NCBI RefSeq assembly: GCF_000172995.2
Contig: NC_014729.1
Coordinates: forward strand, 150,001-182,000
From: Halogeometricum borinquense DSM 11551
GTDB lineage: Archaea > Halobacteriota > Halobacteria > Halobacteriales > Haloferacaceae
Reading direction: 5' to 3'
DNA length: 32,000 nt
The notes beneath the pieces are model-generated. The model was given only the letters and a program-made list of their open reading frames with translations, was not told the DNA's origin and ran no database searches. Positions 9,538 to 17,947 of the stretch are shown here, piece by piece. Positions within the stretch are counted from its first letter, which is position 1. Each line of letters begins with the position of its first letter. The translations under genes and the position numbers were made by a program.

Positions 9538-11715
9538 GTGGCAGAGACGAGCGGATACATGCGGTTCTTCCCGTACGACCGCCCGTACCCGAACCAGGGC
9601 GAAGCGATGGACGGCATCGCAGAGGCCCTCGAAGCGGAACGCGACGTACTCGTCGAGGGTGCGCCGGGGACGGGCAAGACGCTCTCGGCGTTGGTTCCCG
9701 CCGTAGAGTACGCCCGACAGGAAGACAAGACGGTGGTCATCACGACGAACGTCCATCAGCAGATGCGCCAATTTGTCGAAGACGCGCGCGCCATCACCCG
9801 AACGGAGCCGATACGCGCCGTCGTTTTCAAGGGGAAGTCGTCGATGTGTCACATCGACGTTGAGTACCAAGAGTGCCAGACGCTCCGCGATACGACGCGA
9901 AGTCTCGTCGAGAAAGAGCAGGACAAAGCGGAACTGTCCGAGCAAGCCGACGCACTCGTAGACCGGATGCGCGCGGGCGAGCAGGGCGCAGCGGACGCGC
10001 GGACGGCCGTCACCGACGAGCTCGATACGCTCGAAGACGAACTCGAAGACCTGCGTGAGGGCAACATCTGCGAGTACTACTACAATAACCTCACCGAGGA
10101 CACGGACGAGTTCTTTTCGTGGCTGTTCGACGACGTGCGGACCCCCGAGGACATCTACGAGTACGCCGACCAGCGGAAACTGTGCGGCTACGAGCTGCTG
10201 AAAGAAGGGATGGAAGAGGTGGATCTCGTCGTCTGTAACTACCACCATCTGTTGGACCCGAACATCCGCGAGCAGTTCTTCCGATGGTTGAACCGCGAAC
10301 CCGAGGACGTGATCACCGTCTTCGACGAGGCGCACAACATCGAGTCGGCCGCGCGCGACCACGCCAGTCGGGCGCTGACCGAGAACACCTTAGAGCAGGC
10401 GTTGAACGAACTCGAAGACACCGACGACTCCCGCGCCGACTCGGCGGAAAACGTCATTTCGGCGTTCCTCGATGCACTCAAAGAAACGTACGACGAGGCT
10501 TTCGGCTTCGGCGAACGCGAACAGGTCGGCGAGGACTGGTACGACCTACCGATTGCCAACAACGACAGGCGCGACGACCTGACGCTCGCGTTTCTCGACA
10601 GATACGAAGGCCGGGGGATCAGCACGGAAGTCGAGTTAGCGCTCCAGTTGGGCAAGCGCCTCGACGACGAGTACGAGGAAGCGTACAAAGATGGCGAGGC
10701 GACGACGCGACAGGAGTGTCAGACCCTCCAAGCCGCCACGTTCATCGACACGTGGATGGCCGACGGCGGGAAGTTGGGCCAGCATCCCATGTGTTCGGTT
10801 CGCCGCGACGGCGGCACCGACGAAGTGTACGGTCGCGCCGAACTGTACACCTGTATCCCGCGGGAGGTGACCGAGACGCTGTTTGAGGAGGTACACGCGA
10901 GCATCCTCATGTCGGCGACGCTCCGGCCGTTCGACGTGACCGAAGACGTACTCGGGCTGTCGGATCCGGCGACGATGGCGTACGGACTGGCGTATCCAGA
11001 AGAGAACCGGCACACGATTGCCGTGCAGACGCCCGCACTGTTCAGTTCCGAACGCGAGGAACCAGCGACCCAAGAGACGCTGACGCAGGTACTCACGGAT
11101 GCCTCGCGGTTCACACCGGGGAACACGCTCGTATTCTTCCCGTCGTATGCCGAGGCGGAACGCTACCACGAACGCCTGCAAGCACGGATGGATGTAACGG
11201 ACCGTCTGTTCTTAGACGAATCAGGGACGCCGACTGAAGAGATCCGGTCGAAGTTCGTCGAGAGTCAGAGCGCGATACTGCTCACTTCGTTGTGGGGAAC
11301 GCTCGCAGAGGGTGTGAGTTTCGACGGCGATGATGCCAGAACCGTCGTCGTTGTAGGCGTGCCGTACCCGCATCTCTCAGAGCGGATGGAAGCGATTCAG
11401 GACGCCTACGACAGAGTGTACAGCAGTCGGCGAGAGGCGGGGTGGCGCTACGCCGTCGAGATTCCGACCATCCGCAAGACGCGGCAGGCGCTCGGACGCG
11501 TCATCCGGTCGCCAGACGACTTCGGCGTGCGCATCCTCGCGGACAAACGCTACACACGCGCGAGTTCCGAGATGGGTAAGTACGGCGTGCGTTCGACGTT
11601 CCCGCCCGAAGAGCGTGCTGAAATCGTAGACGTCTCCGCGGAGAAGTTGAAGTTCGCCATGTTGAATTTCTACGGCGATCACGACGCCTACGACGGCGAT
11701 CCACCCCGACCCTGA
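9538..11715 (+). CDS. XPD/Rad3-type (DinG family) Fe-S DNA helicase
   Basis: Walker A GAPGTGKT and DEAH box VFDEAHN. Four cysteines in the Fe-S region (SMCH, ECQ, ICEYYY, LCGYE). C-terminal helicase motifs: GTLAEGVSFDGD, QALGRVIRS. The start is ambiguous: GTG 9538, which sits about 27 nt downstream of TTATAA at 9508-9513, or ATG 9559 (MRFFPYDRPYPNQ). Confidence 0.88.
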   Translation: MAETSGYMRFFPYDRPYPNQGEAMDGIAEALEAERDVLVEGAPGTGKTLSALVPAVEYARQEDKTVVITTNVHQQMRQFVEDARAITRTEPIRAVVFKGKSSMCHIDVEYQECQTLRDTTRSLVEKEQDKAELSEQADALVDRMRAGEQGAADARTAVTDELDTLEDELEDLREGNICEYYYNNLTEDTDEFFSWLFDDVRTPEDIYEYADQRKLCGYELLKEGMEEVDLVVCNYHHLLDPNIREQFFRWLNREPEDVITVFDEAHNIESAARDHASRALTENTLEQALNELEDTDDSRADSAENVISAFLDALKETYDEAFGFGEREQVGEDWYDLPIANNDRRDDLTLAFLDRYEGRGISTEVELALQLGKRLDDEYEEAYKDGEATTRQECQTLQAATFIDTWMADGGKLGQHPMCSVRRDGGTDEVYGRAELYTCIPREVTETLFEEVHASILMSATLRPFDVTEDVLGLSDPATMAYGLAYPEENRHTIAVQTPALFSSEREEPATQETLTQVLTDASRFTPGNTLVFFPSYAEAERYHERLQARMDVTDRLFLDESGTPTEEIRSKFVESQSAILLTSLWGTLAEGVSFDGDDARTVVVVGVPYPHLSERMEAIQDAYDRVYSSRREAGWRYAVEIPTIRKTRQALGRVIRSPDDFGVRILADKRYTRASSEMGKYGVRSTFPPEERAEIVDVSAEKLKFAMLNFYGDHDAYDGDPPRP

Positions 11716-11784
11716 ACGACCACATTACTGTCAACTACTAGAACATCCGAGTCGTTCATACGCGTCCAGGCTAACCCCCACGCG

Positions 11785-13143
11785 ATGAGTACGCGACCGC
11801 CGGGGCCGAAGGGCGTGCCGTTGTTCGGAAACAGCCGAGAGTACGCGAAGGACCCGTTCACGTTCCTGAGGCAGGTTTCGGAAGCGTACGGCGACGTGGT
11901 GTACTTCGGTCTCGGCCCGCTCGACACTTACATGCTCACCAACCCCGCCGACATCGAACGGGTGTTGGTGTCCGAAGACGCGAAGTTCCACAAGCCCGAC
12001 TTTCAGGACGACGCCATCGGGACGCTTCTGGGTGACGGACTTCTGCTGAGCGAAGGCGAGACGTGGCGGAAACAGCGCGAACTCGCCCAACCGTCGTTCG
12101 ACCCCCGGCGCATCGCAGCGCTGGGCGAGACGATGACCGATCACGCGACGGCCATGGTCGAAGGGTGGAACGACGGCGAGGTGCGCGACGTACAGTTGGA
12201 GATGGCGCGCGTCACAGTGAAAATAATCGTGGACGCCATGTTCGGGTCGTCGCTTGCGGACGAACGCGTCCGGACAGTACAGGAGAATCTCGAACCCCTC
12301 GGCAAGCGTTTCGAACCCGACCCGTTGCGGTTTCTCATCCCTGACTGGGCACCCACGCGGGAGAACCGCGAGTACAAGCAGTCCATCTCGATTCTGGAGG
12401 GAATCATCGACGATGTGGTAGCCGAACGACTCGGGACTGAAAACGACCCATCGGCCGCAGTGGCAGGCGAAGACGGCGCGCCGATGGACCTCCTATCTGT
12501 TCTCCTCCGGGCGAAACAGCGCGGTGAACAGACCGACCAACAGATACGCGATGAAATGATGACGATGCTGTTGGCGGGCCATGACACCACCGCACTGACG
12601 CTGACGTACGCGTTCTATCTGCTCTCACAGCATCCCGAATCGGAGGCGAAAGTGCAGGCGGAGGTGGACAAGGTGTGCGGCGGCGAGACTCCAACTGTCG
12701 CCGACGTTCGGCAGTTCGACTACCTCGAACGGGTGCTACAGGAGGCGATGCGCCTCTATCCGCCCGTCTACGTCATCTTCCGCGAACCGCAGGTGGACGT
12801 GCGTCTCGGCGGCTATCGGATCCCATCGGGGTCTGCTATCATGCTCCCGCAGTGGGTGGTCCACCGGTCGCCGCGGTGGTACGATGCGCCTACCGAATTC
12901 GACCCGGACCGGTGGCGTCCCGAACGGCGGGCGTCGCGCCCGCGCTTTTCGTACTTCCCGTTCGGCGGTGGACCGCGTCACTGCATCGGCAAGCAGTTCT
13001 CGATGATGGAAGCGAAACTCATCCTCGCCACCGTCGCGCAGGCGTACGAACTGGATTACGTGCGCGACCGACCGTTCAGCCTCCGCGGGTCGTTGACGAT
13101 GCATCCCGAAGAACCGATGGGAATGCGACTGCGGGCGCGGTAG
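11785..13143 (+). CDS. cytochrome P450
   Basis: 452 aa. Heme-thiolate loop FPFGGGPRHCIGKQF, I-helix LLAGHDTT and the ExxR motif (QEAMR). Confidence 0.92.
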   Translation: MSTRPPGPKGVPLFGNSREYAKDPFTFLRQVSEAYGDVVYFGLGPLDTYMLTNPADIERVLVSEDAKFHKPDFQDDAIGTLLGDGLLLSEGETWRKQRELAQPSFDPRRIAALGETMTDHATAMVEGWNDGEVRDVQLEMARVTVKIIVDAMFGSSLADERVRTVQENLEPLGKRFEPDPLRFLIPDWAPTRENREYKQSISILEGIIDDVVAERLGTENDPSAAVAGEDGAPMDLLSVLLRAKQRGEQTDQQIRDEMMTMLLAGHDTTALTLTYAFYLLSQHPESEAKVQAEVDKVCGGETPTVADVRQFDYLERVLQEAMRLYPPVYVIFREPQVDVRLGGYRIPSGSAIMLPQWVVHRSPRWYDAPTEFDPDRWRPERRASRPRFSYFPFGGGPRHCIGKQFSMMEAKLILATVAQAYELDYVRDRPFSLRGSLTMHPEEPMGMRLRAR

Positions 13144-13202
13144 GGGATTCGGACACGATAGGGAGCTGCGGACGCGATAGGGGACTTCAGGTACAGTAGT
13201 GC

Positions 13203-13715
13203 TCACCGAAGCGGAATGCGCGCGGCATCCTCGCGGTACCGCGAGTCCCACACGCGAACCTCCCCAACGGTCCAGCGAACGGCTTCTATCTCCCGTTCTG
13301 CGAGTGCCGCCGCGTCGTCGATGCGTCCCCCGCGAGCGAGCGTCACGTGAGGCGTATATTCGTCACCCTCCATTCCTTCGACAGTCCCGAACTCCGTGCA
13401 GAGTCGGCGGTGAAGTTCGTGGAGACCGGAACTCTCGACGCGGAGATAGACGACCGGTCCGTCCCCGCGTGTGGGGCGTTCGAAGTAGTCGATACCGTCG
13501 ATTCGCGCCTCGAACGGGGCGACACTGCGAAGCGTCTCGCGGAGTCGTTCACGGAGTCGCGGGAGCGAATCAGCGTCCGGATCGAGATTCGTATCGAATC
13601 GCTTGACGACGAGCGTGTGTCGGTCGCGGACGGCGTCGAACGGAGTCAACGCGGGATGGAGGTCTCCCGCAAGGCGTTCGACCTGACCGGGAACAGGCAC
13701 GTTGAGGCTGAACAC
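13203..13715 (-). CDS. 2H phosphoesterase / 2'-5' RNA ligase (LigT-like) family protein
   Basis: 170 aa with two H-x-T/S-x type motifs (RHTLVV and PHVTLA) at the spacing typical of the 2H fold. Confidence 0.7.
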   Translation of the reverse strand: MFSLNVPVPGQVERLAGDLHPALTPFDAVRDRHTLVVKRFDTNLDPDADSLPRLRERLRETLRSVAPFEARIDGIDYFERPTRGDGPVVYLRVESSGLHELHRRLCTEFGTVEGMEGDEYTPHVTLARGGRIDDAAALAEREIEAVRWTVGEVRVWDSRYREDAARIPLR

Positions 13716-13762
13716 GTCCGAGCGTCGGTGTCGTGGGTGAAAAGTCGTCGGATTCTACGGGA

Positions 13763-13987
13763 TCAGATTCGATCCAGTAGCCAGAGAACGATCAGGACGA
13801 GAATCACGACACCGAGAAGTGGCTGGAGGGGACCGAGAAGGTGCGTAACGAAGCCGACGACATCGCCGACGATTTTGAGGACGAGCCAAATCACGACGAG
13901 GACGAGGATCAGTTTCAGAAGGTCTTCCACGTCGATTCCGCCGCGCGTTCCGGGGAACATAGGAGCCACGTCATCCTCGAACTGCAA
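13763..13987 (-). CDS. small hydrophobic protein, about 2 TM helices (function unknown)
   Basis: 74 aa, MQFEDDVAPMFPGTRGGIDVEDLLKLILVLVVIWLVLKIVGDVVGFVTHLLGPLQPLLGVVILVLIVLWLLDRI. An alternative start is ATG 13960. It lies 81 nt downstream of the toxin-like cassette on the same strand. Confidence 0.55.
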   Translation of the reverse strand: MQFEDDVAPMFPGTRGGIDVEDLLKLILVLVVIWLVLKIVGDVVGFVTHLLGPLQPLLGVVILVLIVLWLLDRI

Positions 13988-14068
13988 GTGTCTTGCGGGG
14001 AGCCACTTCAGATACGCCGAACCGGAAACAGCAGAGATAGGATCCAGTCGAATACTCGTGACGGCGTT

Positions 14069-15034
14069 CTATCCGAGCAGTGGCGTATGGTTGCCGTCGC
14101 GTTTGTGGACTTCGGGATACATCTCGAAGTGGTCGTAACGGCGGGAATCCCGGAACTTCCCGAAGCCGACGACGTGGAATTCCTCGGGCGGGACGACGCC
14201 CATCTTCAGGAAGCAGTCTCGGACCTGACAGCGCAGGTGGTGATCGAGATATGCCGGGAATTCATCGAACGATTCGGGTGCGTACGGGAGCAGTGACAGA
14301 CGGGCATCAGCCTGGTGAGTGAACGGTGAGTCGGCTTCATCGACCTCGTGTTTACCCAGTCGATTCGGATAGCCGATGTGGAGTCCGGAAACACCAGTAA
14401 TCGTCAGGTTTGTTGTGAGGTCCTCGCGAGTGACGATAGCTGCAAGATCGTCTCCGAAGGCTTTCCAACGGCTGAGCGTCTCGTCGCTGAGTTCCGAAAC
14501 GGGCTGGACTTCGGCACTTTCCTCAAGATCGAACCCGTGGGCAGTCGCCAGTGCTTGGGCGCGCTCTGCGACATCTTCACCGACGGCTTCTAAGCCGAGA
14601 TAGATCTCTGGTTCGTAGACGACTGCATCCGGTTTGCGGACGCCTGAGGGGAGTTCTCGAGGTCGCTCGGTGTCGTCGTGGTGGCTGCGGAGTTGCCTGT
14701 AGAGCGCTCCAAAGTACCGCTTGAATTCTGCCGGTGACAAGTCCGCGATGGCCCGGCGCACTGCATCCACGTACGCCGGATTCTCTATATGTTCGACGGT
14801 GTCGTACCCCCGCTGGGCGAATACGTAATACTTCGCGTAGCGTCGCGCTTGATTATTGTATTCGTTCTCCTCGGAGGTACGGCGATTGGCATCGTCTGCG
14901 TACGCATCACATTGGTGGTACGGGATATCTCCTGAATTCTTGTCAATAGTCAATTCATGCTCTGAATCAAGGTTATCTGTAATATACACCTTAACATAAT
15001 TCTCGTCTTCACCTTCGATAGTGGATTCCATCAT
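14069..15034 (-). CDS. unknown-family acidic protein, partner 2 of the cassette (candidate immunity/accessory protein), paralog of 15613..16647
   Basis: 321 aa. Its ATG overlaps the stop of the upstream orphan gene (tcat at 15031-15034, i.e. ATGA). It shares blocks with the 344-aa paralog: NQARRYAKYYVFAQRGYDT vs NQARRFAKYWVYRKRGYDT, and HHLRCQVRDCFLKMGVVPPEEFHVVGFG vs HLLCQIRDCYLTMGIAPPEQFRILGHG. Confidence 0.8.
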   Translation of the reverse strand: MMESTIEGEDENYVKVYITDNLDSEHELTIDKNSGDIPYHQCDAYADDANRRTSEENEYNNQARRYAKYYVFAQRGYDTVEHIENPAYVDAVRRAIADLSPAEFKRYFGALYRQLRSHHDDTERPRELPSGVRKPDAVVYEPEIYLGLEAVGEDVAERAQALATAHGFDLEESAEVQPVSELSDETLSRWKAFGDDLAAIVTREDLTTNLTITGVSGLHIGYPNRLGKHEVDEADSPFTHQADARLSLLPYAPESFDEFPAYLDHHLRCQVRDCFLKMGVVPPEEFHVVGFGKFRDSRRYDHFEMYPEVHKRDGNHTPLLG

Positions 15035-15564
15035 TGACCACCTCCACTATACGGGTCAGAACCACCATGATCGTTCCTTGCCTCGATGAACTCTTGATAC
15101 ATCTCGGCCATTTCGTAGTACATCTGCTCTAGTTTGTCGGCTTCGCCACCGGGACGATTATTCATCATTGTCCCGACAAACTCTCTGGAAACGGTTTGGG
15201 CAATGGAGGTAACGCCCCCTATAAACGCGGCTGCGCCAGTCGCTTCTGGACTCCCAGTCATGGCACCGATACCGAGGCCGACACCTACGCCGGTCGCCCC
15301 CTTCATGCTGGCACCTTGCCAATCGAAGTCTTCGGGTGCGCCCGGCGAGGCTTCCAAGAGCGTTCCCATCATCTGCTCTTGGCGGTCTTCGATGTTCTTG
15401 ATATTCGTCTTGTGGGTCTCGATACTCTCATCGTGCTCGCTGACTTGCTGTTGGAGGTCTTCGACCGCTCCGTACAGCATTCCGTCATCGGCTTCTGCGG
15501 GCATCCGCTGAACGTGCACGTCTGAGTGCTCCATGCGATGCACGCCGATTTTCCCGCCTTGCAT
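15031..15564 (-). CDS. orphan toxin-like C-terminal module: conserved junction peptide plus a glycine-zipper/hydrophobic C-terminal domain. It lacks the DUF4157 domain.
   Basis: 177 aa. The first 22 residues, MQGGKIGVHRMEHSDVHVQRMP, are identical to residues 268-289 of the 429-aa protein (65-bp DNA repeat). The rest is unrelated and contains GATGVGVGLGIGAMTGSPEATGAAAFIGGVTSIA. An in-frame TAG lies 3 codons upstream of the ATG. Confidence 0.72.
   Translation of the reverse strand: MQGGKIGVHRMEHSDVHVQRMPAEADDGMLYGAVEDLQQQVSEHDESIETHKTNIKNIEDRQEQMMGTLLEASPGAPEDFDWQGASMKGATGVGVGLGIGAMTGSPEATGAAAFIGGVTSIAQTVSREFVGTMMNNRPGGEADKLEQMYYEMAEMYQEFIEARNDHGGSDPYSGGGQ
15500..15564. repeat. 65-bp direct repeat, copy 1 (junction of the orphan module)
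   Basis: ggcatccgctgaacgtgcacgtctgagtgctccatgcgatgcacgccgattttcccGccttgcat. It matches 17068-17132 at 64/65 positions. The single difference is at 15556 vs 17124 and is a synonymous Gly codon. Confidence 0.95.
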
Positions 15565-15612
15565 TGCGTGCTAGCGGACCCCTCGAATACTGCGGAATAA
15601 CTTCATGGCCGG

Positions 15613-16647
15613 TCAGGCCTTGGTTTGAACGTTTTTGTTAGCGGGCTCGTGTTCGTAGGCACCTTCGGGTGTGTTCTCTACGTACCACGTGTCAATCTCG
15701 GCGTTGGGGTCGAAGTATTCATCGTAGATGTCGTAGCTGGCGTATAACCCCGTGGCTTCGTGGCGACCGTGGCCGAGGATACGGAACTGCTCAGGTGGTG
15801 CGATTCCCATAGTGAGGTAGCAATCCCGAATCTGGCACAGCAGATGTCTGGCGACTTGGGCCTGCAGTTCGGTAATCGAGTCCGGCTCGAAGGGGAAGAT
15901 TTCGATGCGGGCGGCCGGGTCACGACCAAGGTCAGGTTGGTCTCCCCATTGGGTATGGTACTCGCCCGGCGGGTCATCCCAGTGTACATGAATACCCGAA
16001 GTAGCTTCCAGTAGGAGTCCCTCGCTGAGGCTTGGGAGTGAATCAGAGTCCCGGTCGGATGCCTCTGCGATTAGTTCTTTGAAGGTCGGAACGTACTCTG
16101 CTCCAACCAGGGATTCTCCGCCAACGCCGACAGACTTGCCGACCAGTTCCATCAGTTTGGGATCCGCAAGGAGATCAGCCGCGATTGTCCCCAGAGTCTC
16201 GTCTTCAAGGCCAACGTAGATGTCTTTCTGATAGACTGTTCCACCGCCCTGTTCGGGAACGCCCTCGGGCATTTCGACCGGCGAGTCAGCAGTTCCATTG
16301 ATACTCTGGAAGTGCTGATAAAAGTCGCCTAAATGGGTTTCCGCAGTTTCGGGTTCCAGTGGTGTCAGAGCAATTGCGGCTGCTATGATCCGATCTGGGT
16401 TCTCCGTTGGGGGAATCGTGTCGTATCCGCGCTTGCGGTACACCCAGTACTTCGCAAAGCGGCGAGCCTGATTGACGTGGATGTTTCCGGCTCTTGTCCG
16501 CTCACTCGGGTCATCCGGGTAGCCATCCTGTTCGTGGTAGGTGATTTCGCCATCGAAGTTGACAGAAATCCCATGACTCACTTCGTTATTATCAATAACT
16601 CTCAGTCCGACACCACCATCATCTTCCCCGCCAAGAACTGCTCTCAT
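15613..16647 (-). CDS. unknown-family acidic protein, partner 1 of the cassette (candidate immunity/accessory protein), paralog of 14069..15034
   Basis: 344 aa. Its ATG overlaps the stop of the DUF4157 gene (tcat at 16644-16647). Conserved blocks are shared with the 321-aa paralog at both termini, and the middle is variable and acidic. Confidence 0.82.
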   Translation of the reverse strand: MRAVLGGEDDGGVGLRVIDNNEVSHGISVNFDGEITYHEQDGYPDDPSERTRAGNIHVNQARRFAKYWVYRKRGYDTIPPTENPDRIIAAAIALTPLEPETAETHLGDFYQHFQSINGTADSPVEMPEGVPEQGGGTVYQKDIYVGLEDETLGTIAADLLADPKLMELVGKSVGVGGESLVGAEYVPTFKELIAEASDRDSDSLPSLSEGLLLEATSGIHVHWDDPPGEYHTQWGDQPDLGRDPAARIEIFPFEPDSITELQAQVARHLLCQIRDCYLTMGIAPPEQFRILGHGRHEATGLYASYDIYDEYFDPNAEIDTWYVENTPEGAYEHEPANKNVQTKA

Positions 16648-17933
16648 TTGCTCACCTCATCAGCAGAAGGGACTCTCTCTGGCCGGTCTCCCGACCCAGT
16701 CCCATCAGACACTTCTTGGGCAACCCGTCTGGCTTCGTCGAGCCATGTTTCTGGTGGGTCCATTTCAGCGAGTTGGCCCTTCCACGAGTCCGGGAAGTTG
16801 GCCTCGGCGAGTCGGTCTTGGAAGTTGCTCTCTTTGAATTGCTGTTGCGCGTTGTTTTTCGCGGCGCGTACGCCTTTGACGCCCGGAATGATGTTTGCGT
16901 AAGCCGCCATTTGAGCTTTGAACCCTTCATAGGCAACTTCGTGGCCGTCAATATCATCCCAGTTTTCCCGGATCTCCTGCAACTGCTCGCCTTCCTCCAG
17001 CATCTTCGGAATCATCATCTGACTGGCCACCAATGCAGTTGCACCGCCAAGAACGGTTTCTGCGCCAGGCATCCGCTGAACGTGCACGTCTGAGTGCTCC
17101 ATGCGATGCACGCCGATTTTCCCACCTTGCATCACGCGCTGGGCGGTTTCTTCGGCTTCCCGTTCCAAGCGTGGGTCAGGATCAATCTCTAACTCGCCTT
17201 CTTGGGGAAGCATCGACACCGCGCCGCCCGTTTGCTGGCGCACGTGTGCTAACTCGTGGGCGAGAATATGCTGGCCTTCAGCACTCGATGGATCGTACTC
17301 GCCGTGGTTGAACGCGATGTGATTGCCGACGGTAAACGCGCGGGCGTTGATATCCTCGCAAGCTTTCGCGGCCGATGGACCCGTGTGGACGCGTACATCG
17401 CCCAGATTGTCGCCCATCCGATCTTCCATCGCGCGCTGGATGCTCGTGTCGAGTTGCTGGCCGGGCGAGGAAATCACGTCTCGCACTGAGTCGGGCACGT
17501 TCGCGTCACCAGCCTTGCTTGCTTCGTGATGCGCGCCGCGACTGCGCTGGACGGATTTAGCGTTCCGGCGTTCGATGTCCTTTGGGACTTCCGCGGGCCG
17601 TTCTTTCTGACGCTGGCGGAACGCGCGCATGTCGCGTGGCTTGCCCATCGTATCGACGGTCATGCCTTCGTCGGCCCACTGCCGAACTTGATCTGCGCCG
17701 TGTTTCTTGGCCAGTCGCTGAATCTTCGTATCCAGCCCATCCATGTAGATCTCTACCCCGAAGCGAGACTCACACTCTTGGGGTGTTAGCGAACCACCGC
17801 CACCACGACTCTGATTTCGATTCGAGCCTCCCGTCAGCTCTTGAATAGACGGAACGGACGAGGACTCTTTGCTCGGAGTCGTCCGTTCGTTCGCAGACCG
17901 AAATCTCATTCTTACTGCAAACTTGATAGCCAT
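16644..17933 (-). CDS. DUF4157 (zincin-like HExxH metallopeptidase / pre-toxin) domain protein with a variable C-terminal domain; candidate polymorphic toxin
   Basis: 429 aa. Residues about 150-234, GQQLDTSIQRAMEDRMGDNLGDVRVHTGPSAAKACEDINARAFTVGNHIAFNHGEYDPSSAEGQHILAHELAHVRQQ, match the DUF4157 consensus as I recall it (L....R..ME..fG.dfs.VRvHt...A......A.AfT.G..I.F..g.y.P....G..LLAHEL.HV.QQ). The start is ambiguous. TTATATA at 17936-17942 (minus strand) and a TT at -10/-11 fit a leaderless start at the second ATG (17909, MRFRS...) at least as well as 17933. Confidence 0.85.
   Translation of the reverse strand: MAIKFAVRMRFRSANERTTPSKESSSVPSIQELTGGSNRNQSRGGGGSLTPQECESRFGVEIYMDGLDTKIQRLAKKHGADQVRQWADEGMTVDTMGKPRDMRAFRQRQKERPAEVPKDIERRNAKSVQRSRGAHHEASKAGDANVPDSVRDVISSPGQQLDTSIQRAMEDRMGDNLGDVRVHTGPSAAKACEDINARAFTVGNHIAFNHGEYDPSSAEGQHILAHELAHVRQQTGGAVSMLPQEGELEIDPDPRLEREAEETAQRVMQGGKIGVHRMEHSDVHVQRMPGAETVLGGATALVASQMMIPKMLEEGEQLQEIRENWDDIDGHEVAYEGFKAQMAAYANIIPGVKGVRAAKNNAQQQFKESNFQDRLAEANFPDSWKGQLAEMDPPETWLDEARRVAQEVSDGTGSGDRPERVPSADEVSK
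17068..17132. repeat. 65-bp direct repeat, copy 2 (internal to the 429-aa gene, encoding M268-M288 and the first two bases of the P289 codon)
   Basis: See copy 1. It marks the boundary between the conserved N-terminal part and the variable C-terminal domain. Confidence 0.95.
17232..17486 (-). other. DUF4157 zincin domain segment within the 429-aa protein (HELAH encoded at 17244-17258)
   Basis: Coordinates come from a residue count of the ORF. cacgagttagcacac (HELAH) was read on the minus strand at 17258..17244. Confidence 0.8.
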
Positions 17934-17935
17934 CC

Positions 17936-17947
17936 TATATAATTATT
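17936..17947 (-). promoter_or_regulatory. TATA-like box upstream of the DUF4157 gene
   Basis: The minus strand reads AATAATTATATAGG-ATG. The box lies about 27-33 nt upstream of the second in-frame ATG (17909). The whole 17934-18137 intergenic region is AT-rich and is shared with the divergent SPFH gene. Confidence 0.4.

Follow-up and report, generated by a model that had tools for sequence, protein, structure and literature searches.

Two coupled gene pairs on the chromosome of the haloarchaeon Halogeometricum borinquense DSM 11551 raise the question of whether they constitute a polymorphic toxin–immunity locus with a displaced (orphan) toxin module and, if so, what about them is new. The window analysed is 32,000 nt long (NC_014729.1, positions 150,001 to 182,000; coordinates below are those of the window), and the element in question consists of four co-directional minus-strand open reading frames (ORFs), Hbor_01880 to Hbor_01850 by exact look-ups, that together span 14069–17933. 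The first pair comprises a full-length polymorphic effector, Hbor_01880 (16644–17933, minus strand; ADQ65799.1, by accession identity; ORF of 429 aa), and partner A, Hbor_01870 by gene order (15613–16647, minus strand; ADQ65798.1, 344 aa), the predicted cognate immunity protein for C-terminal domain A of the effector. The second comprises an orphan, Hbor_01860 (15031–15564, minus strand; 177 aa), made up of a 22-aa junction and a C-terminal domain B of 155 aa with neither the N-terminal domain nor DUF4157, and partner B, Hbor_01850 by gene order (14069–15034, minus strand; ADQ65796.1, 321 aa), predicted to confer immunity to C-terminal domain B. Each pair is joined by a 4-nt ATGA overlap (16644–16647 in pair 1, 15031–15034 in pair 2), and the two partners, both of the family DUF7958, are paralogs (32% identity, E = 6e-53). 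This layout, both overlaps and the paralogy of the partners had been described in a first-pass annotation of the window, and all were verified by ORF coordinates and BLASTP. With a probability of roughly 0.85, the genes are two toxin–immunity pairs of the arsenal of the H. borinquense archaeal type VI secretion system (T6SS), acting in the manner proposed below.

Much of the setting has been published. H. borinquense was named in 2012 as having several PVC-metallopeptidase toxins with variable C-termini, the peptidase being read as the releasing peptidase of polymorphic toxins secreted by phage-tail-like machines, and many PVC toxins were found without adjacent immunity genes (Zhang et al. 2012, PMC3482391). 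The organism kills Haloferax volcanii by contact, with lysis of target cells reported, and the weapon is a contractile injection system, anchored in the membrane, whose genes lie on plasmid pHBOR03; Hbor_01880 and four other DUF4157 proteins were enriched in the wild-type secretome relative to that of a sheath mutant (cis2::novR), and Hbor_38740, 38760, 02990 and 38900 entered H. volcanii only together with their downstream genes, meaning that they were toxic and were neutralised (PMC11566945, Sci Adv 2024). The T6SS-associated DUF4157 pairs of that study come from the same organism and the same families as the window pairs and, for Hbor_01880, concern the same gene, whose downstream gene the authors noted; the text leaves the partner family unnamed, does not contain the words orphan, truncated or polymorphic, and does not mention Hbor_01860 or Hbor_01850. 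The first-pass proposal of an undescribed archaeal interference system is thus overtaken, DUF4157 toxins having been predicted in 2012 and the secretion of Hbor_01880, with the toxicity and neutralisation of paralogous pairs, published in 2024. The remark that no secretion machinery lies nearby applies to the window, where no contractile-injection genes were found (the flanks hold housekeeping genes), but not to the genome, since the machinery is present on pHBOR03; on a plasmid contig (L076), DUF4157/DUF7958 pairs lie between genes for the sheath (PF04984) and the tube (PF06841). Apart from novelty and missing machinery, the proposed architecture of a toxin with an N-terminal DUF4157, a protector, and an orphan with a paralogous protector is upheld by the breakpoint, arrays, co-variation and strain comparison described below. 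What emerges is very probably a true polymorphic toxin–immunity locus that includes an orphan; it is known in kind, pair 2 being a new member of the described T6SS arsenal. New are the assignment of the partners to DUF7958, the replacement of a cassette bounded by the junction, and the coupling between toxin tail and partner N-terminal module.

The conserved part of Hbor_01880 is anchored by its metallopeptidase domain. A search with PF13699 (eCIS_core, formerly DUF4157) returned a match at aa 160–237 (E = 9.6e-32; 109.4 bits against a cut-off of 22) that covers profile positions 1–78 of 79, confirming the DUF4157 (PVC-metallopeptidase) zincin domain suspected in the 429-aa ORF (17223–17456, minus strand; HELAH at 17244–17258). 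The motif HELAHVRQQ occupies aa 226–234, with H226, E227, H230, Q233 and Q234 invariant in 54 homologs, and is followed by conserved glutamates at E257–E261, giving the HExxHxxQ...E signature of a putative zincin peptidase. Ahead of it lies a conserved helical N-terminal domain (aa ~50–135; 17529–17786, minus strand) with many invariant residues, the AlphaFold2 (AF2) model being helical at aa 50–130 with a predicted local distance difference test score (pLDDT) of 91–97, though the whole model is poor (pLDDT 60). This domain occurs in full-length toxins only and is missing from the orphan and from truncated paralogs; it had no match in Pfam, the PDB or Foldseek, where the Foldseek query was the poor whole-toxin model and hence uninformative, and a PDB sequence search with the toxin profile found nothing. 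It may be a loading or secretion determinant. When the published secretome is combined with the gene mapping given below, the full-length toxins 01880, 38720, 38900 and 02990 are present and the truncated 38740 and 38760 absent, a split that fits, weakly, an export role for the N-terminal domain. Of the candidate starts of Hbor_01880 within 17742–17933, the true one is probably M9 of the ORF (ATG at 17909, 421 aa), because homologs begin with MGFRS, matching MRFRS, and a TATA-like TTATATA box lies ~30 nt upstream (at about 17936–17942); starts at 17933 (429 aa) and at the M64 annotated in GenBank/RefSeq (366 aa) are both less likely. The annotated start drops ~55 N-terminal residues, which may matter for secretion and toxicity assays, and expression constructs built on the 366-aa annotation would be without them.

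Constant and variable parts meet at a short junction, and it is there that the two pairs can be compared directly. The orphan ORF begins with MQGGKIGVHRMEHSDVHVQRMP, which is identical at 22/22 positions to Hbor_01880 aa 268–289, and the peptide is embedded in a 73-nt direct repeat (95% identity, copies 1,568 nt apart), so that pair 2 does begin at the junction peptide, as the first reading of the locus had it. Copy 1 (17068–17140, minus strand; encoding ..AQRVMQGGKIGVHRMEHSDVHVQRMP) marks where the constant part gives way to the variable C-terminal domain, and copy 2 (15500–15572, minus strand) contains the orphan start, at the Met matching M268 of the full-length toxin; disorder is predicted by AF2 for Hbor_01880 aa 276–301. 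Beyond the junction, C-terminal domains A and B are unrelated, as had been claimed (no BLASTP match; family-level hhalign probability 0.3%). Among 120 homologs, column identity to Hbor_01880 is 0.83–0.96 at aa 160–270, 0.46–0.60 across the junction and 0.10–0.26 after aa 290, a profile with a sharp breakpoint at the junction, where conservation had been expected to collapse. Such a sharp switch from a conserved N-terminal part to unrelated C-terminal domains is the pattern by which polymorphic toxins are defined (Zhang et al. 2012).

The same boundary is visible between strains. From 11001 as far as 15572, the outer edge of the repeat, the window aligns collinearly with two other H. borinquense strains at 93.8%; upstream of 15572 these strains have another first cassette, and their orphan is longer, retaining the 3' half of DUF4157. 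The direct repeats thus enclose a 1,568-bp unit (15573–17140, minus strand), made up of the junction, C-terminal domain A, partner A and the spacer, which acts like a cassette that was inserted or replaced. At least three strains keep both the orphan and the partner B ORF intact, along with their ATGA coupling, and the ratios of nonsynonymous to synonymous substitution (dN/dS) of 0.41 (orphan) and 0.39 (partner B), compared to 0.05–0.09 for the neighbouring LigT and P450 genes, indicate from codon comparison a pair under purifying selection, but loosely constrained.

The partner family, which the first-pass annotation could not assign, is Pfam DUF7958 (PF25858). All homologs of partner A among the 120 listed carry PF25858; membership was read from this annotation of the homologs, the Pfam set scanned directly being without that model, and partner B was tied to the family through its match with partner A. 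A DUF7958 profile search against 1.84 billion representatives recovered 191 clusters, 178 of them below 1e-10, and every named hit was haloarchaeal, restricting the family to haloarchaea. The protectors validated in the literature, Hbor_38750, 38770 and 38910, are DUF7958 proteins (Hbor genes on contigs L076 and L078 were mapped by accession arithmetic and by protein sizes from the supplement of the paper), to which the window partners are clearly homologous (partner B vs Hbor_38750, E 3e-36; partner A vs Hbor_38910, E 1e-53, and vs Hbor_38770, E 7e-30). The partner is cytosolic and acidic, without a hydrophobic segment, and the AF2 model of partner A is confident (pLDDT 85.6; predicted template modelling score, 0.87) and had no known fold in Foldseek searches (best E 0.68 in the PDB, 0.33 in BFVD); NCBIfam gave no match for the window proteins. 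Family members share a nearly invariant motif, CQIRDCY..MG..PPE.FR..G.G, and differ in a central region (partner A aa 145–215) that is a variable-length insertion, missing in some members including Hbor_38750 and 38770, in which the profile matches as two stretches, 1–144 and 201–315. No mention of DUF7958 was found in the literature searched, which did not take in Makarova et al. 2019 (mBio 10:e00715-19), the principal survey of polymorphic toxins in archaea.

DUF7958 genes also occur outside regular pairs. Solo genes exist without an adjacent toxin, Hbor_38800 being an example that may be an orphan immunity gene without a toxin; it lies on the opposite strand within the T6SS cluster (L076, 9032–11539; Hbor_38780–38800), beside a 79-aa DUF4157 remnant and a ParA/ArsA-like ATPase gene. 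Apparent toxin–DUF7958 fusions in ORF calls or annotations (L007, 7091–8350; P0248, 557 aa) may reflect read-through across the ATGA overlap, or else a frameshift or an annotation error. Where a DUF4157 toxin ends in a GH-E nuclease domain (L075, 5001–6776), the gene after it encodes an ankyrin-repeat protein, not DUF7958, a pairing of GH-E toxin with ankyrin immunity that appears in Zhang et al. 2012 (PMC3482391). One N-terminal chassis thus goes with different immunity families according to the class of C-terminal domain.

Across a survey of 74 loci from about 29 haloarchaeal genomes (a search of PLSDB plasmids added only four haloarchaeal plasmids), 170 DUF7958 ORFs and 129 adjacent toxin-to-partner pairs were identified, with a stop/start gap of -4 nt in 38 pairs and of 1–6 nt in most others. 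Tandem arrays reach four pairs within 13 kb, and full-length toxins predominate at array position 1 (55/75) and N-terminally truncated ones at position 2 (23/35), truncated toxins followed by intact partners being the rule at positions 2 and beyond. Where the truncation falls varies, anywhere between mid-DUF4157 and the junction. The succession of toxin, partner, orphan and partner recurs in H. borinquense itself, at Hbor_38900–38930 and at Hbor_38720–38780, where Hbor_38740 starts mid-DUF4157 and Hbor_38760 after the HExxH motif; because these two truncated proteins were shown to be toxic in 2024, orphan modules can encode active toxins. Junction copies of one locus resemble each other more closely at the DNA level (median, 0.68) than do those of different loci (median, 0.49), and are at least 90% identical in 9/78 within-locus pairs compared to 21/7,797 between-locus pairs. 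The orphan that starts at the junction, the 73-nt repeat, the truncated toxins of arrays and the strain breakpoint at the repeat edge together mark a stand-alone toxin–immunity cassette.

Sequence families of toxins and partners change together. BLAST sorts the C-terminal domains of the 129 pairs into 20 families; C-terminal domain A (aa 290–429; 16647–17066, minus strand), helical and with a 17-residue uncharged segment directly after the junction, belongs to family 4 (7 members). The idea that all C-terminal domains form one divergent superfamily was unsupported, hhalign probability reaching at least 50% in 3/66 family pairs, although low-complexity helices could mask homology. Median partner identity is 52% where the C-terminal domains are related and 36% where they are unrelated (p about 1e-231), and 147/148 comparisons in which partners share at least 60% identity involve related C-terminal domains, the pattern that cognate immunity predicts. 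Adjacency, translational coupling and co-variation, together with homology to three experimentally supported protectors, make Hbor_01870 and Hbor_01850 candidate immunity genes. A coiled-coil stretch, an uncharged segment rich in Gly/Ala and an acidic terminus are found in most of the 129 C-terminal domains, with an uncharged stretch of at least 20 residues in 84/129 (background, 13). C-terminal domain B, a member of the largest family (55/129), contains such a Gly/Ala-rich uncharged segment, GATGVGVGLGIGAMTGSPEATGAAAFIGGVTSIAQ (15196–15300, minus strand), which is glycine-zipper-like, has eight small-xxx-small motifs and is putatively membrane-active; one related domain gave a weak Gly-zipper_Omp match. 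The uncharged Gly/Ala segments and the reported lysis phenotype suggest that the toxins are membrane-active and restrained by a cytosolic binder.

A second layer of modularity lies at the seam between toxin and partner. The first ~40 residues of DUF7958 proteins form a four-stranded meander (AF2, pLDDT above 95), represented in partner A by an N-terminal beta-module (aa 1–40; 16528–16647, minus strand) of the type that pairs with the RPDRVPS tail. This module is uncoupled from the partner body, bodies 93–99% identical having modules only about 50% identical, and co-varies with the last ~10 residues of the upstream toxin. A dozen or more tail types recur (..GDAQSRR, ..KVDF, ..RPDRVPSAEEV, ..DPYxGG, ..SRFD, ..ADELGK and ..GxGGHV among them) and are scattered over unrelated C-terminal-domain families. 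Pairs that share a tail type have a module identity of 0.64 and pairs that do not have one of 0.44, body identity being 0.34 either way, and the coupling holds for pairs from different genomes alone (p = 4e-145). De novo clustering separated two axes, adjusted mutual information (AMI) being high between module and tail (0.68) and between body and C-terminal family (0.69), and low between module and C-terminal family (0.11) and between body and module (0.10). Both window pairs follow the rule, the RPDRVPS-type tail A, RPERVPSADEVSK (16647–16685, minus strand), occurring with MRAVLGGEDDGGVGLRVIDNNEVSHGI in pair 1 and DPYSGGGQ with MESTIEGEDENYVKVYITDN in pair 2, as do the pairs 38720/30, 38740/50 and 38760/70 of the T6SS cluster.

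Strain comparison captures an exchange of this kind at the window locus itself. In strain L080, ~190 nt (~14895–15084) are replaced by an RPDRVPS-type tail and the matching module, with the same C-terminal domain B and partner-B body retained (flanks, 87–100% nt identity); between L079 and L080, the first pair differs in tail and module only. The exchangeable block (14895–15084, minus strand) comprises toxin tail B (..DHGGSDPYSGGGQ), the stop/start overlap and the N-module of partner B (MMESTIEGEDENYVKVYITDNLDSEHELTI..), its edges being set by the strain alignment, as an ungapped codon profile around stop and start was too blurred by indels and over-long ORF calls. Recent DNA transfer of the types was ruled out, third-position identity at identical codons being 0.453 in same-type modules and 0.454 in bodies, and because synonymous-site identity thus equals that of the partner bodies the types are old. 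A general secretion signal was likewise ruled out, since toxins with GH-E, deaminase or colicin-D C-terminal domains have no such tail; these enzymatic-domain toxins use other immunity families, and the tail thus goes with DUF7958, not with secretion at large.

It is tentatively proposed, at somewhat below even odds, that DUF7958 proteins recognise toxins through two separable, independently recombining interfaces. One would be neutralising and join the partner body (aa ~50–320) to the toxin C-terminal domain; the other would be addressing, with the last ~8–14 residues of the toxin docked on the four-stranded beta-module (aa 1–40) of the partner. Tail and module are the last and first segments made by a ribosome crossing the ATGA overlap, and the tether could form co-translationally. 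If tail and module do dock as a physical lock and key, the types, at least a dozen, could prevent mispairing of paralogous toxin–immunity pairs in one cell. The pattern may also reflect pure linkage, in which the ~190-nt block is exchanged as a unit and crossovers are possible only in its conserved flanks; such flanks do exist ([DE]TGxG in the toxin, QDGYPDDP in the partner), and linkage could give the same pattern. Within genomes, module types are shared less often than expected by chance (11/468 pairs; expected, 19.2 ± 4.5; P = 0.024) and body types are not (35; expected, 27.3), and this over-dispersion, with the conservation of tails at the peptide level, modestly favours function over linkage. 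The two-axis modularity of tail and N-module is apparently unreported, the 2024 study being silent on it.

A mechanism can be proposed from these modules. Hbor_01880 would consist of an N-terminal helical domain serving as loading or secretion determinant, a DUF4157 zincin acting as releasing peptidase or loading aid, as proposed in the literature, a disordered conserved junction, a variable helical C-terminal domain and a short tail. The translationally coupled cytosolic DUF7958 partner (Hbor_01870 for C-terminal domain A, Hbor_01850 for B) would bind and neutralise its cognate C-terminal domain, shielding the producer and its kin. The orphan pair would be a displaced one, a junction plus a glycine-zipper-like, probably membrane-active domain with its own DUF7958 gene; having no N-terminal parts, the orphan toxin is probably not exported, and its immunity gene would protect against neighbours deploying that toxin. 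Recombination across the 73-nt repeat would fuse the exported N-terminus to C-terminal domain B and so could switch the toxin.

Several results weigh against this account. Hbor_01880 was not toxic when expressed in H. volcanii (PMC11566945), the AF2 model of C-terminal domain A is of low confidence, and the C-terminal domains match no known toxin family, a Pfam scan of 27 representatives returning one weak Gly-zipper_Omp hit. The absence of 38740 and 38760 from the secretome could mean no expression instead of a missing export signal. A single homologous partner family for about 20 unrelated C-terminal-domain families is unusual for immunity and leaves room for a different role, in which DUF7958 proteins would primarily be chaperones or adaptors that keep hydrophobic domains soluble and hand the effector to the spike, possibly doing both jobs. 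The long uncharged Gly/Ala-rich segments of most C-terminal domains, the use of other partners by toxins with enzymatic domains (GH-E with an ankyrin protein), the tether-like coupling of tail and module, and the cytosolic, acidic character of the partner would all suit such a role. Co-expression of DUF7958 homologs nonetheless abolishes toxicity in H. volcanii, which has no such T6SS (PMC11566945), solo DUF7958 genes stand without an adjacent toxin, as orphan immunity predicts, and no sequence or fold similarity to known adaptors was found; masking a toxic segment would, moreover, be operationally immunity, and the roles are not exclusive. A primarily chaperoning DUF7958 is accordingly rated an unlikely reading, though one of some weight, perhaps one chance in four.

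The orphan pair raises its own doubt, namely that Hbor_01860/01850 is a decaying, functionless remnant of a former full-length toxin locus. Besides having no N-terminal domain or DUF4157, the orphan is preceded by a 48-nt spacer from partner A (15565–15612, minus strand) with an in-frame TAG 9 nt before its ATG and no recognisable promoter, where the scan used a bacterial consensus that is uninformative for an archaeal promoter. The pair is absent from the reported secretome (PMC11566945), its dN/dS of ~0.4 is far looser than in the flanking genes and fits either diversifying pressure or relaxed constraint, and clear remnants such as the 79-aa Hbor_38780 fragment occur elsewhere. Decay is nevertheless improbable given that both ORFs and their coupling have stayed intact between strains, that dN/dS is below 1 for both genes, that the tail/N-module block has been exchanged in-frame as a unit, implying continued selection, that the analogous orphan Hbor_38760 is toxic with a protective partner (PMC11566945), and that a truncated toxin with an intact partner is the norm downstream in arrays. 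Intracellular type II toxin–antitoxin (addiction) modules with no link to secretion would share the two-gene, translationally coupled layout with a downstream protector and the island-like GC content of the locus; this explanation is very improbable, since secretion of Hbor_01880 is sheath-dependent (PMC11566945), DUF4157 is a marker of contractile-injection cargo, proteins of 320–420 aa in toxin-first order are atypical, and Pfam and NCBIfam scans matched no toxin–antitoxin family.

The first-pass annotation had recognised a signature of CDI (contact-dependent inhibition) and Rhs loci, and the orphan logic is indeed the same: a constant N-terminal part, a conserved junction as recombination site, a variable C-terminal domain with a cognate immunity gene, and displaced orphan pairs downstream without the N-terminus. 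The likeness is one of analogy only, the locus not being a member of those systems, since Pfam scans of the four proteins and their neighbours found no CdiB/CdiA, FHA (filamentous haemagglutinin), RHS repeats, VENN or PxxxxDPxGL junction motifs, delivery is by a phage-tail-like machine, and all immunity genes come from one homologous family. For the proposed tail docking, a precedent exists in CdiA-CT/CdiI of strain EC869, where a toxin peptide completes the beta-sheet of the immunity protein by beta-augmentation; there, the augmenting strand is part of the toxin domain itself, not a separable typed tag that is shuffled independently. Toxins of PVC and related extracellular contractile injection systems (eCIS) share the HExxHxxQ zincin before a hypervariable C-terminal toxin and occur as multiple paralogs per genome (PMC3482391, PMC11297309), but here such toxins regularly come with immunity genes of a dedicated family and with arrays of orphans, and the H. 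borinquense machine is membrane-anchored (T6SS-like), not released. Like Imm-SUKH, Imm-SuFu and Imm-ank (Zhang et al. 2012), DUF7958 is one scaffold diversified against many unrelated toxin domains; unlike them it has no sequence or fold similarity to these families, is found only in haloarchaea and has an extra, independently shuffled N-terminal module. The Eag/DUF1795, DUF4123 and DUF2169 adaptors are likewise conserved families beside diverse effectors with hydrophobic segments, but no homology to them was found (Pfam, NCBIfam, Foldseek), and DUF7958 homologs neutralise toxicity in a heterologous host.

The cassette stands out from its surroundings by a GC content of 55–58% compared to 61–66% in the flanks, which hold arginine/lysine biosynthesis genes, an XPD-type helicase, P450, LigT and DUF7554 on one side and SPFH, TauE and UvrB on the other; no tRNA or Rfam elements were found in the window. 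The DUF7554 gene (13763–13987; 74 aa, hydrophobic) lies directly downstream of partner B, falls inside the strain-shared stretch (11001–15572) and stays adjacent in other H. borinquense strains (as a 65-aa gene in L079/L080). In L079 (CP048739, 1129–2489), DUF7845 genes are found upstream of the orthologous cassette in place of the SPFH gene of the window, and the outer boundary of the island therefore differs between strains.

Archaeal toxin–immunity interference has been published for this organism and for this gene, and to that extent the finding is confirmatory. Its wider meaning lies in placing the protectors validated in 2024 and the two window partners in one haloarchaeal family, which takes six anecdotal pairs to several hundred members and makes DUF7958 a marker for archaeal T6SS cargo far from the machinery. 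If the physical tether between tail and module is true, paralogous toxin–immunity pairs would be kept apart by a principle that is new, and there would be a handle for engineering the specificity of cargo and immunity. The orphan and array logic of CDI/Rhs-type loci operates in archaea, with a defined recombination junction, which hints at the way haloarchaea vary their arsenals and at the reason for the build-up of immunity genes.

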